Counted from the stretch's first letter, positions 47,927-52,678 are shown. The stretch: DNA of 64,000 bases from Escherichia coli (GCF_003334785.1 NZ_QOWV01000001.1); one strand, 5' to 3'. Translations and numbers: made by a program. Notes: generated by a model from the letters alone, not told the origin.

Positions 47927-48120
47927 GCACTCTCCTTGAGTTTTATGCAGGTGTTAATTAGCGGGCAATTGTACCCTGGTTAAGCCTCGGGTGGCAGCAT
48001 CAGGTCTTGTATGGAAAAGCATATCTTTGTAAAGCGGAGGTAATTGCTGGCCTTCAGGCATGGGCAAATCGCGGCAAGTGGCGACCGAGTTAATATTTGC
48101 GTAGCGAAAATATTTAAAAA

Positions 48121-48134
48121 TTGATTTAAATCAC
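48121..48134 (+). promoter_or_regulatory. FNR-like half-site pair upstream of ompW
   Basis: TTGATttaaATCAC (one mismatch to TTGAT-N4-ATCAA) about 160 bp upstream of the ompW ATG. Confidence 0.4.
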
Positions 48135-48282
48135 ATTAACCAGGATTCTCAATGCAACTTCTAAATTAATCCAGATCAATAAAGGGTGAATTATCATATG
48201 TAATGTGATCTATGTAGGATCATTTGTTACTCCAATGTAGGTATATTCGTCACGTTTTTATAACCATAACGACGGAGCGGAT

Positions 48283-48921
48283 ATGAAAAAGTTAACAGTG
48301 GCGGCTTTGGCAGTAACAACTCTTCTCTCTGGCAGTGCCTTTGCGCATGAAGCAGGCGAATTTTTTATGCGTGCAGGTTCTGCAACCGTACGTCCAACAG
48401 AAGGTGCTGGTGGTACGTTAGGAAGTCTGGGTGGATTCAGCGTGACCAATAACACGCAACTGGGCCTTACGTTTACTTATATGGCGACCGACAACATTGG
48501 TGTGGAATTACTGGCAGCGACGCCGTTCCGCCATAAAATCGGCACCCGGGCGACCGGCGATATTGCAACCGTTCATCATCTGCCACCAACACTGATGGCG
48601 CAGTGGTATTTTGGTGATGCCAGCAGCAAATTCCGTCCTTACGTTGGGGCAGGTATTAACTACACCACCTTCTTTGATAATGGATTTAACGATCATGGCA
48701 AAGAGGCAGGGCTTTCCGATCTCAGTCTGAAAGATTCCTGGGGAGCTGCCGGGCAGGTGGGGGTTGATTATCTGATTAACCGTGACTGGTTGGTTAACAT
48801 GTCAGTGTGGTACATGGATATCGATACCACCGCCAATTATAAGCTGGGCGGTGCACAGCAACACGATAGCGTACGCCTCGATCCGTGGGTGTTTATGTTC
48901 TCAGCAGGATATCGTTTTTAA
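48283..48921 (+). CDS. ompW: outer-membrane protein W
   Basis: 212-aa ORF with signal peptide (MKKLTVAALAVTTLLSGSAFA) and C-terminal aromatic residue (GYRF). Confidence 0.95.
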   Translation: MKKLTVAALAVTTLLSGSAFAHEAGEFFMRAGSATVRPTEGAGGTLGSLGGFSVTNNTQLGLTFTYMATDNIGVELLAATPFRHKIGTRATGDIATVHHLPPTLMAQWYFGDASSKFRPYVGAGINYTTFFDNGFNDHGKEAGLSDLSLKDSWGAAGQVGVDYLINRDWLVNMSVWYMDIDTTANYKLGGAQQHDSVRLDPWVFMFSAGYRF

Positions 48922-48980
48922 TTCCGCACAAAAACGACCCCGTAATATACGGGGTCAATAAGGACATGGTATAAAGGGTA

Positions 48981-49487
48981 TTATTTCTTCGCTTCTACGC
49001 CATCAGTTTCAGAGCGAATTAAAAATTTCTCAGTTGTTTGCGGAATATTCTGAATCAGCCAGTCGGCCATTTGCTTTTCCTCATTTAAAATCGCTTCGAT
49101 GGTTGGAATTGAAGCTGTATCACCGGCATTTTTTGCTGCTGCTAATAGTGAGGTGTAACAGGCGATTTCAAATTGCTCGAAGACATATCCGCTAATAGAG
49201 CCTTTGACTATTTCATCAGAAGGGAATATACCACCGATTGACTGCCCAAGCGCAGCCATTTTACTCATGGAATCTTTAATGACTGAACGTGAAATGTCAT
49301 TACGATCAAGAATAGTTTCCAGTTGAACAATCTGGTTTTTGGTTTCACTAAGATGTTGTTCAATACGAGCGCGTAGTTCAGGATAATTATCTATACGGCT
49401 GGCCATGGATTCAAGCATAGATTCGGCTTGCTTTTCCATTGCGTGGGCGTCACGTAACCAGTCATGATAATGTTCAATACGATTCAT
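48981..49487 (-). CDS. yciE: ferritin-like DUF892 stress protein
   Basis: 168-aa ORF, paralogous in sequence to adjacent yciF. Confidence 0.88.
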   Translation of the reverse strand: MNRIEHYHDWLRDAHAMEKQAESMLESMASRIDNYPELRARIEQHLSETKNQIVQLETILDRNDISRSVIKDSMSKMAALGQSIGGIFPSDEIVKGSISGYVFEQFEIACYTSLLAAAKNAGDTASIPTIEAILNEEKQMADWLIQNIPQTTEKFLIRSETDGVEAKK

Positions 49488-49532
49488 GAAAATGTCCTCT
49501 TTATAAAATGACTAAAAGTTAAAATTCATATT

Positions 49533-50033
49533 TCAGGCTTTATTTTCGGCTTTCTTATTTACGTTATTAATGGCCAGATCAGTCAGTTTGATGTCGGTGG
49601 CCTTTTCTTCTTCCAGGGTTTCTTTCAGAAGCTTCGCTGCTTTACGGTAACCTAATTGTTCAGCCAGCGTCGCTAATGTCCCGTAACTGGCAATCTCATA
49701 ATGCTCGACTTTCTGTGCTGCGGCAATCAGTGCGGCATCACGCACTTCGTTTTTCTCGGTACTTTCGATGACCTCATTAGCTTCTTCAATAAGACCTTCC
49801 ATTGCCACACATTTCATGCGCTTAATTTTCAGGTTCGATTCGGACTCCACAACTTGATCAATACGTTCAATCTGTCCATGAGTTTCCTCGAGGTGCGCAT
49901 GAAAAGCCTGACTTAATTTTTCATTTGATGTTGCTCTTGCGAGTTTTGCCAGTGCCCGGGTTAATTGTTTTTCTGCGCTGTAGGTATCTGAAAGCAGGTG
50001 AATAAATACATCTTCAATGGTCTTCATATTCAT
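49533..50033 (-). CDS. yciF: ferritin-like DUF892 stress protein
   Basis: start at MNMKTIEDVF (166 aa). Confidence 0.88.
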   Translation of the reverse strand: MNMKTIEDVFIHLLSDTYSAEKQLTRALAKLARATSNEKLSQAFHAHLEETHGQIERIDQVVESESNLKIKRMKCVAMEGLIEEANEVIESTEKNEVRDAALIAAAQKVEHYEIASYGTLATLAEQLGYRKAAKLLKETLEEEKATDIKLTDLAINNVNKKAENKA

Positions 50034-50118
50034 ATTTTTCTCCAGTGAAATCACTGCGAGCCATACGGCCCGCAGATGCAATTATCTTTATCAGCTGATA
50101 TTAATAATTAACGGTGAA

Positions 50119-50298
50119 TCAGGATTTGCCTGATTTATTACCACCGCTTTGTTGACCGCCTTTTTTACCCGCTTCAGATGCGCGTTGCGGATCATTTTTA
50201 AAATTACCGCCGCTATGCTGACCGCCTTTACGGCCTGCGTCGGATGCCTTCTCACGGTCTTCGGCGAAATTTCCTGAACCACCACGATGTTCGGCCAT
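50119..50298 (-). CDS. yciG: small KGG-repeat stress protein
   Basis: 59-aa product from MAEHRGGSGNF...; contains two internal repeats of about 20 aa. Confidence 0.85.
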   Translation of the reverse strand: MAEHRGGSGNFAEDREKASDAGRKGGQHSGGNFKNDPQRASEAGKKGGQQSGGNKSGKS

Positions 50299-50640
50299 GT
50301 TATTTCTCCCGTTGCGTTGCATTGTTTCATTAATATGAGTGTTGTGTGTCGACACTCATTAAAATTAGTCGCTAATGAGAATTAGTCAAATTAAGCGCAA
50401 CGAGAAGATAGAGGGAAAATATATTTTGAGGAACATTCTGGATATATTAACAATTACCTGAGGAATAAGTGACTTAGAGAAAATTATTGATTTTACTGGT
50501 GTTATGTTGCGGGATTAATTTGTTTGATTATATTACTGTTGGGCGGAAAAATGACGTAAGTTGACGTTCGACCGGGGTAAGCGAAACGGTAAAAAGATAA
50601 ATATTAAATGAATTTAGGATTTTTCCGGCTTCATTAAAGA

Positions 50641-50672
50641 AAGTTAAAATGCCGCCAGCGGAACTGGCGGCT
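50641..50672 (-). terminator. trp operon terminator (trp t)
   Basis: gccgccag-cggaa-ctggcggc hairpin with U-rich run on the minus strand immediately after the trpA stop. Confidence 0.85.
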
Positions 50673-50678
50673 GTGGGA

Positions 50679-51485
50679 TTAACTGCGCGTCGCCGCTTTC
50701 ATCGGTTGTACAAAAACTTTCAGTGCCGCCAGCATTTTCTCTGGCTCATTAATATGTTGCTCGATGATTTTAACAATGGCCGAACCAGAAATCGCGCCCG
50801 CAGCTCCTGCATCAATCGCTGCTTTTACCTGATCCGGGGCGGAAATACCAAATCCCTGCAATGGAGGTGCAGCGTTGTACTCTTTCAGCTTCGCAACCAG
50901 ATGATTGAGGGGTAACGCGGCGCGGTTTTCTGCGCCGGTCACGCCTGCTCGTGACAGCAAATAGGTGTAACCACGACCGTAAGAGGCTATCTGGCGCAGC
51001 AGGTCGTCATCGGCATTTGGCGGGCAGATGAAGATAGGTGCGACATTATGACGCAACGCGGCCTGGCGGAAGGGCGCGGACTCTTCAACTGGCACATCGG
51101 CAACCAGCACCGAATCGACGCCGACTTTTTCGCACTGGGCATAAAACTCATCAATGCCTTTGTTAAACACCAGATTGGCATACATCAACAGGCCAATGGG
51201 AATGGTCGGGTGTTTCTGGCGAATCAGTGCCAGCATTTCAAAACATTGTGCCGGAGTCACACCTGCCGCAAAGGCGCGCAGAGTGGCGTTTTGAATCGTC
51301 GGGCCATCCGCCAGTGGGTCGGAGAAGGGGATACCTAACTCCAGCGCGTCAGCACCGGCTTCAATTAGCGTATCGATAATTTTCAATGACTGCTCAATGC
51401 CCGGATCACCGAGCGTGACGAAAGGAACGAATGCGCCTTCTTTGCGCTCCTTCAACTGGGCAAACAGAGATTCGTAGCGTTCCAT
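50679..51485 (-). CDS. trpA: tryptophan synthase alpha subunit
   Basis: 268-aa ORF; sequence recognised. Confidence 0.97.
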
Positions 51486-52678
51486 CAGATTTCCCCTCGT
51501 GCTTTCAAAATATCGTGAACGGTGAAGATGTCTTTATCGCCGCGACCGGAAAGGTTAACCACCAGTAGCTGCTCTTTATCCGGGTTTTCGCGCATCATTT
51601 TCAACGCATGGGCCAGGGCGTGGGAGGATTCCAGCGCCGGGATGATCCCTTCGTGCAGGCACAGCGTTTTGAAGGCTTCAAGGGCTTCATCATCGGTAAT
51701 AGACACGTAATCAGCGCGTCCAGTGCTGTTAAGATACGCGTGTTGTGGGCCGACAGACGGGAAATCCAGTCCGGCGGAGATGGAGTAAGATTCTTCAATC
51801 TGCCCGTCTTCGGTTTGCATCATCGGCGCTTTCATACCGAAATAGATACCCACGCGACCATGTTTTAGCGGTGCGCCGTGCTCGCCAGTTTCGATACCGT
51901 GACCACCTGGCTCCACACCAATCAGGCCGACGTTGGTTTCATTGATGAAATCAGCAAACATGCCGATGGCATTCGAACCGCCGCCAACACAGGCGATAAC
52001 GGCATCCGGCAGGCGACCTTCTCTTTCCAGAATCTGCGCTTTGGTTTCTTCGCCAATCATCCGCTGAAACTCACGCACAATGGTCGGATAAGGATGCGGG
52101 CCAGCTGCGGTGCCCAGCATATAGTGCGCGGTTTCGTAACTACCGGACCAGTCGCGCAGCGCCTCGTTACAGGCATCTTTCAGCGTCGCGGAACCGCTAT
52201 GCACCGGGATCACTTCCGCACCCATTAAGCGCATACGAAAAACGTTAGGCGACTGGCGTTCAACGTCTTTGGCACCCATATAAATACGGCATTTCAGGCC
52301 GAGCAGGGCGCTGGCAAGGGCCGACGCCACGCCATGCTGACCGGCACCGGTTTCGGCGATGATTTCGGTTTTACCCATCCGCTTCGCCAGCAACGCCTGC
52401 CCCAGCACCTGGTTAGTTTTATGCGCGCCGCCGTGCAGCAAATCTTCACGCTTGAGATACAGCGTGGTGTTCGTCCCGGCTGTAATGTTCTGGCATTTGG
52501 TCAGCGCGGTTGGACGCCCGGCATAGTTTTTCAGCAGGTCGTTGAACTGAGCCTGAAATTCAGGATCTTTTTGCGCACTGACAAAAGCTTCTTCCAGCTG
52601 GCGCAGAGCAGGCATCAGGATTTGTGGCACGTACATGCCGCCAAACTCACCAAAATAGGGGTTAAGTAATGTTGTCAT
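51485..52678 (-). CDS. trpB: tryptophan synthase beta subunit
   Basis: 397-aa ORF; 1-nt overlap with trpA. Confidence 0.97.

Follow-up and report, generated by a model that had tools for sequence, protein, structure and literature searches.

The yciG-yciF-yciE locus of Escherichia coli: two ferritin-like DUF892 paralogues and a KGG-repeat hydrophilin behind a predicted sigma-S-type promoter

Genes, boundaries and distribution of the locus

Three open reading frames (ORFs) are located on the minus strand at positions 48981-50298 of the window, i.e., the whole stretch of 64,000 nucleotides of Escherichia coli DNA that was analyzed, and the ORF listing together with direct reading of 48600-50800 identified these as yciE, yciF and yciG. 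The gene yciE (48981-49487, minus strand) encodes a ferritin-like four-helix-bundle protein of the DUF892 type with 168 aa, as supported by ORF, Pfam, PDB and RefSeq evidence, yciF (49533-50033, minus strand) encodes a DUF892 ferritin-like protein of the YciE/YciF ferroxidase family with 166 aa starting with MNMKTIED (ORF, Pfam, PDB), and yciG (50119-50298, minus strand) encodes a glycine-rich hydrophilic KGG-repeat protein with 59 aa (ORF, Pfam). According to the ORF listing the genes are flanked by ompW (48283-48921, plus strand) on the yciE side and by trpA (50679-51485, minus strand) on the yciG side. The location given in an initial annotation of this DNA matches the ORF coordinates exactly, and the gene names used there agree with RefSeq: many E. 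coli chromosomes contain the 1.8-kb region with 100% identity, and in these RefSeq annotates yciE, yciF and yciG between ompW and trpA. The locus is the chromosomal yciG-yciF-yciE stress operon of E. coli on an ordinary chromosome. No NCBIfam model matched YciE, YciF or YciG at E <= 0.001, and therefore the RefSeq names derive from other types of evidence.

Each of the three genes is preceded by a Shine-Dalgarno sequence and the gaps between the genes are short, with 85 bp between yciG and yciF and 45 bp between yciF and yciE. The Shine-Dalgarno sequence of yciG is GGGAGA at 50305-50310, upstream of the ATG at 50298, and the ATG of yciF at 50033 is preceded by GGAGAAAAAT. Longer ORFs were considered for both genes, namely a GTG-started ORF of 78 aa for yciG (50119-50355) and a TTG-started ORF of 182 aa for yciF (TTG at 50081). 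These were rejected because the shorter ATG starts possess a Shine-Dalgarno sequence and agree with RefSeq and, for yciF, with the PDB entry.

On both sides the operon is bounded by intrinsic terminators. The terminator following yciE (48935-48957, minus strand) is composed of a 10-bp stem followed by TTTTTGTG; it is arranged back to back with ompW and sits in the gap of 59 bp between the stop codons of yciE and ompW (48922-48980). The upstream boundary is the trp operon terminator after trpA (50651-50671, minus strand), which contains a 9-bp stem, 7 pairs of which are GC, and then ATTTTAACTT. A terminator scan of the coding strand found no terminator-like site between yciG, yciF and yciE. An Rfam E-value scan of 48000-51500 returned a match to sroD over the trp terminator as its sole hit; with 21.9 bits it is below the gathering score of 50 and was rejected as a chance match or a terminator look-alike. 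The base composition distinguishes the genes from their neighborhood, as the GC content is 0.37-0.46 in the yciGFE genes and 0.32 upstream of them vs. 0.52-0.59 in trpA/trpB.

When 5,426 complete E. coli genomes were searched by megablast with window positions 48900-50700 as query, 4,736 of them gave a match to the region, i.e., the yciGFE islet is missing from approximately 690 of these (~13%). In strain MS1170, which is devoid of yciGFE, the distance from ompW to trpA is 50 bp and both genes share one common terminator (locus L003, 1655-1704; L004, 5822-6001). A smaller natural deletion is present in ATCC 25922, in which 313 bp equivalent to window positions 50005-50317 are absent (L002, around 2216-2221). 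This removes yciG completely, together with the yciG-yciF spacer and 29 nt at the 5' end of yciF, and the retained yciG promoter and leader are now fused to the 5'-shortened yciF.

Further variation was observed in the neighborhood of the operon. The ompW gene of MS1170 is a divergent allele encoding 217 aa with ~90% identity. An IS1 element is inserted between ompW and yciE in several E. coli strains that are otherwise identical (L001, 3094-3791, corresponding to approximately 48960), and the window is free of it. In many genomes the match to ompW breaks at query positions 514-521, i.e., at approximately window positions 48796-48803 (H34-H42, L004), and what is left of the gene carries the annotation of a partial "OmpW family" protein beside prophage tail genes, which points to prophage integration within ompW near window position 48800. 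Between yciC and ompW, a gene of the YkgJ family with a CxxCxxCC motif is left as a 90-nt pseudogene remnant in E. coli annotations (~47950-48070, minus strand), and it is intact in the Salmonella locus (L005, 7040-7444, 134 aa).

The closest known system is yciGFE-katN of Salmonella enterica, which shares with the E. coli locus the position between trpA and ompW, the gene order yciG-yciF-yciE, the -35/-10 promoter blocks and a hairpin between yciG and yciF, and which encodes a YciG with 90% and a YciF with 86% identity. It is likewise RpoS-dependent and regulated by H-NS and YncC. The E. coli locus differs from this four-gene operon in lacking katN: in Salmonella and Citrobacter the katN gene, encoding a Mn catalase of 292 aa, is positioned between yciE and ompW (L005, 5104-5982; L007, 5088-5966; L008, 5095-5973), whereas the 59 bp from the yciE stop to the ompW stop in the window (48922-48980) hold the terminator and neither katN nor a remnant of it. 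The genes z1921-z1924 of the EHEC prophage CP-933X are, by published description, highly homologous to yciGFE-katN; these are prophage-borne and include katN, whereas the copy in the window is the chromosomal one between trpA and ompW.

The low GC content, the absence from ~690 of the 5426 genomes with ompW 50 bp from trpA, the ATCC 25922 deletion that takes out yciG, the IS1 beside yciE in some strains and the second, prophage-borne yciGFE copy reported in EHEC could together be read as marks of a horizontally acquired, H-NS-silenced and largely dispensable islet that is conserved by hitch-hiking rather than for its function. This is very unlikely, as purifying selection is implied by the identity of 86-95% that the proteins retain between genera and by the invariance of their ligand residues and of the promoter blocks, and as the operon shows a very strong induction by RpoS (PMC2907692).

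Predicted promoter, upstream region and the yciG-yciF hairpin

Loci orthologous to yciGFE were obtained from Salmonella, Citrobacter and C. rodentium via their YciF homologues and the trpA-yciG intergenic regions were aligned. The mean column identity in this alignment is 53%, but E. coli, Salmonella, Citrobacter sp. and C. rodentium all have the two blocks AATTTGACTA and CGACTAATTTTA without any change. A generic sigma-70 scan was silent upstream of yciG, also at the conserved TTGACT/TAATTT site, and its only hits were two weak sites within yciE or at its beginning, which is fewer than in shuffled sequences (2 vs. 5.2); therefore, the promoter was located by cross-genus conservation. The predicted yciG promoter, supported by this conservation and by the consensus, extends over 50362-50389 (minus strand). 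It is composed of the -35 element TTGACT (50384-50389, minus strand), which is invariant in the four genera, a spacer of 16 nt and the -10 element TAATTT (50362-50367, minus strand), which has a C at -13 (50368) and then TAA and is a sigma-S-type extended -10. Both the C(-13)TAATTTTAA block and the -35 block are invariant across the four genera. The signature of promoters preferred by sigma-S combines a CTAnnnT -10 element, a C at -13 and A/T-rich DNA downstream of the element. The sequence GACTAATTTTAAT at 50370-50358 contains the C at -13, the CTAnnnT -10 and the A/T-rich stretch after it, and it is invariant in the four genera. The promoter is thus predicted to be of the sigma-S type, and the sigma-S-type -10 element for which the initial annotation had proposed to search upstream of yciG was found. 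From its position, transcription would start near 50355, giving a leader of ~57 nt. Beraud and co-workers reportedly mapped the yciG promoter and the YncC site in 2010.

A perfect TATAAT at 50527-50532 was rejected as the main promoter because it has no acceptable -35 element and is not conserved across the genera. Two palindromes were noticed in the promoter region. The perfect DNA palindrome GTGTCGACAC (50345-50354, minus strand) is located downstream of the predicted -10 at approximately +1 to +11 of the putative transcript; it is conserved in Salmonella, and the Citrobacter version of it is imperfect. The second palindrome, CTAAT-N4-ATTAG, lies in the promoter spacer (50368-50381) and has the version CTATC-N5-GATAG in Citrobacter. 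Either of them could be the binding site of a regulator. A hairpin GAGUGU...ACACUC in the 5'-UTR is no more stable than its shuffled counterparts (z = -0.78).

According to the composition profile, the upstream DNA from the trp terminator to the yciG promoter (50390-50650, minus strand) is AT-rich, with a GC content of 0.32-0.40, and it is a plausible candidate region for H-NS nucleation and for McbR binding. It was shown that the yciGFE operon is repressed by H-NS (PMC6064147; bioRxiv 10.1101/2025.05.13.653802), and in PMC7705038, which cites Beraud 2010, McbR/YncC is described to activate the operon by binding at the yciG promoter. In stationary phase of strain EDL933, the RpoS dependence of yciGFE amounts to 205/405/38-fold (PMC2907692), and in Salmonella yciG was found to be RpoS-dependent by qRT-PCR (PMC7161692). 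Furthermore, Salmonella YciG is upregulated upon phosphate starvation in a PhoB-dependent manner (PMC10715179) and OmpR upregulates yciF under acid and osmotic stress (PMC6262077). The RpoS dependence, the H-NS repression and the McbR/YncC activation bear out the initial reading of the cluster as an operon of stress proteins.

A further conserved element is located inside the operon. The yciG-yciF spacer contains a GC-rich hairpin of 9 bp, CTGCGGGCC-GTAT-GGCTCGCAG (50054-50075, minus strand), which is positioned just upstream of the yciF Shine-Dalgarno sequence and occurs once in the window. The spacer of 85 nt folds with -25.2 kcal/mol (z = -2.8), and one of 200 shuffled sequences reaches an equal stability. 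The hairpin stem is conserved in four genera, including Salmonella and two Citrobacter loci, while the rest of the spacer diverges. The stem shows one-sided base changes only, and therefore covariation does not prove the structure. The hairpin may be a leaky terminator or a stabilizer of an RNA end, and given its presence the three genes could be expressed other than stoichiometrically from one simple transcript.

YciG, its repeats and its possible role

YciG has the sequence MAEHRGGSGNFAEDREKASDAGRKGGQHSGGNFKNDPQRASEAGKKGGQQSGGNKSGKS and gives two matches to the Pfam family KGG (PF10685), covering residues 10-30 and 32-52 with E = 4.9e-9 and E = 3.5e-8, respectively. The initial annotation had described YciG as a protein of 59 aa made of two repeats, and this holds in extended form, as the units comprise 22 aa and are followed by a truncated third unit. 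Repeat unit 1 (50218-50283, minus strand) encodes residues 6-27, GGSGNFAEDREKASDAGRKGGQ, and repeat unit 2 (50152-50217, minus strand) encodes residues 28-49, HSGGNFKNDPQRASEAGKKGGQ; after unit 2 follows the partial third unit QSGGNKSGKS with 10 residues (50122-50151, minus strand). The two 22-aa units delimited in the initial annotation are alike in 12 of 22 residues.

The corresponding 66-nt units of the DNA agree in 36 of 66 positions (55%) and in 6 of 22 third codon positions, and a core of 45 nt encoding ASxAGxKGGQxSGGN is 78% identical at the 66-nt period. The best in-frame 66-nt self-match of yciG has 42/66 identical positions, compared with a mean of 31.3 and a maximum of 40 in codon shuffles, and none of 2000 shuffles equaled it. 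Tandem Repeats Finder (TRF), applied to 48900-50700 with a minimum score of 30, found no array, for which reason a recent DNA tandem repeat was rejected. As the units are only 55% identical with scrambled third positions and as TRF found no array, the duplication is real yet ancient and kept at the protein level. The tandem duplication claimed at the DNA level is thus detectable, as it exceeds all 2000 codon shuffles, but it is far weaker than was implied, with 55% identity and no TRF array.

Hydrophilins are defined by the criteria of Garay-Arroyo as proteins with more than 6% Gly and a mean hydrophilicity above 1. With 24% Gly (23.7%) and a Kyte-Doolittle GRAVY of -1.67, YciG falls within this definition. 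It may also resemble Bacillus GsiB. The Garay-Arroyo criteria are cited in PMC5437024, and YciG has been termed a hydrophilin with the paralogues YmdF and STM14_1829 (PMC5437024, PMC7161692). With these KGG-repeat/con-10/GsiB-type hydrophilins it shares the tandem KGG repeats of ~22 residues, the high Gly content and the hydrophilic character, and according to the literature also the RpoS/general-stress control and the intrinsic disorder, which was reported for the Salmonella YciG orthologues (PMC7161692). YciG differs from its paralogues in that its full repeats number only two, followed by a stub, and in that it is co-transcribed with DUF892 genes, whereas the paralogues stand alone per the literature. 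A PDB search returned no relative of YciG. The protein is 90-95% identical to its Salmonella and Citrobacter orthologues, and its phenotypes (motility, acid and heat tolerance) vary between strains (PMC7161692).

YciG is most likely a stress protectant or a binding partner rather than an enzyme. A more specific role has been derived from a bacterial two-hybrid screen in S. Paratyphi A, in which YciG was recovered three times as a partner of YhjH (2026 preprint): YciG could be a specific regulator that binds the c-di-GMP phosphodiesterase PdeH/YhjH or controls flagellar genes and thereby links RpoS to motility. The same preprint refers to earlier reports of effects of YciG on motility and fliC, and in exponential phase of EDL933 yhjH depends on RpoS, as does yciF (PMC2907692). 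However, the interaction was absent with the S. Typhimurium YhjH allele (2026 preprint), the motility phenotypes did not recur in S. Enteritidis (PMC7161692) and this evidence comes from Salmonella and not from E. coli. Moreover, the composition of YciG is typical of hydrophilins, which act non-specifically. A regulatory role is therefore rather unlikely for YciG, and a function as disordered protectant or binding partner is preferred.

YciE, YciF and the proposed function of the operon

By sequence comparison, YciE and YciF are distant paralogues, with 25% identity over 159 residues (BLASTP, E = 6e-8), and both match the Pfam family DUF892 (PF05974) over the full length, YciE with E = 2.2e-50 (model positions 4-158 of 159) and YciF with E = 5e-52 (model positions 1-158 of 159). 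YciF gives an additional weak match to the Pfam family Rubrerythrin (E = 0.011). For both proteins structures are available: YciE matches PDB 3OGH, "Protein yciE", with E = 3.6e-106, and YciF is identical to PDB 2GS4 across all 166 residues and matches the Salmonella YciF structure 4ERU with E = 3e-87. The fold of DUF892 proteins was described as a four-helix bundle (PMC6262077). The paralogy of the two proteins and their assignment to the ferritin-like DUF892 type, both stated in the initial annotation, are upheld by the BLASTP comparison and by the Pfam and structure matches, respectively.

The initial annotation had further made its reading dependent on the presence of metal-binding residues, and a complete set of ligands was found in both paralogues by alignment of eight sequences, i.e., YciF and YciE from E. 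coli, Salmonella, Citrobacter sp. and C. rodentium. The residues E21, H47, E50, Q54, E110, E113, E142 and E143 (YciF numbering) are invariant in all eight, and the di-metal ligand set E21, E50, Q54, E110, E113 and E143 is complete in YciF and in YciE, in which E18, E48, Q52, E104, E107 and E137 align with the YciF metal ligands. The classical ExxH motif is absent, as YciF has E110-H-Y-E113 at this position and YciE has E-Q-F-E with Q in place of H111. For Salmonella YciF it was shown that the protein is an iron-binding ferroxidase with an oligomer size of ~100-109 kDa, and iron binding and ferroxidase activity were reduced or abolished in the mutants Q54A, E113Q and E143D, while EDTA left the melting temperature unchanged (bioRxiv 10.1101/2023.01.20.524870). 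E. coli YciF is 86% identical to Salmonella YciF and the residues mutated in that study, Q54, E113 and E143, are conserved, so that ferroxidase activity is strongly suggested for E. coli YciF on account of this identity; it is suggested with less strength for YciE, the activity having been measured for the Salmonella YciF orthologue only and in a preprint (bioRxiv 10.1101/2023.01.20.524870). The statement in the initial annotation that the biochemical role of these proteins is poorly defined was accordingly too cautious, given a ferroxidase that is 86% identical.

In comparison with ferritin, bacterioferritin, Dps and rubrerythrin, the YciE/YciF proteins share the four-helix bundle with carboxylate ligands inside it and, as known for Salmonella YciF, the formation of higher oligomers and the ferroxidase activity. 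YciF differs from these ferritin-like di-iron proteins by the lack of the ExxH motif, by the Gln residue Q54 as ligand and by its membership in the separate Pfam family DUF892, and the reported Salmonella YciF oligomer of ~100-109 kDa contrasts with a 24-mer or 12-mer cage.

The metal site without ExxH and the unchanged melting temperature upon EDTA treatment in the Salmonella YciF study (bioRxiv 10.1101/2023.01.20.524870) would also suit proteins that are not iron-detoxifying ferroxidases in vivo, and YciE and YciF might instead use a di-metal site with, e.g., Mn or be non-enzymatic structural or storage proteins acting as partners of the Mn catalase KatN. The gene of the latter directly follows yciE in Salmonella and Citrobacter, and older annotations name proteins of this kind "putative structural protein" (names of PDB 2GYQ and 7TMV; PMC2907692). 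Against this stand the direct measurement of iron binding and ferroxidase activity for Salmonella YciF, both dependent on the predicted ligands (bioRxiv 10.1101/2023.01.20.524870), and the retention of highly conserved yciF and yciE in E. coli without katN, which make a role of this type quite improbable.

With a probability of approximately 90%, the locus is thus read as an RpoS-driven and H-NS-silenced yciG-yciF-yciE operon encoding di-iron proteins and the disordered YciG. The low-GC islet would have been inserted between the trp operon and ompW and would be transcribed from a single promoter upstream of yciG, whose -35 is close to the consensus and whose -10, with C at -13, is of the sigma-S type; RNA polymerase containing RpoS would read this promoter in stationary phase and under stress. 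H-NS would silence the operon over the AT-rich upstream DNA with McbR/YncC acting as counter-activator, and transcription would stop at the terminator common to yciE and ompW. YciF, and by analogy YciE, would be four-helix-bundle di-iron proteins that oxidize and sequester Fe(II), and the removal of Fe(II) would limit Fenton chemistry and the formation of reactive oxygen species in cells exposed to bile, to acid or to osmotic or oxidative stress, while YciG would contribute as a disordered glycine-rich hydrophilin. The genes, the structures, the regulation by RpoS, H-NS and McbR and the ferroxidase activity of the family have all been published already, so that this reading has little weight as a discovery.

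The yciG-yciF hairpin, the natural removal of yciG in ATCC 25922 and the absence of the islet from ~13% of genomes are the basis for a further and tentative proposal, which is more doubtful than not: the hairpin would be a functional RNA element giving rise to an abundant transcript of yciG alone, and the operon would be less a fixed unit than a modular stress cassette that varies between lineages. If this is true, the hairpin would uncouple the dosage of YciG from that of YciF and YciE.
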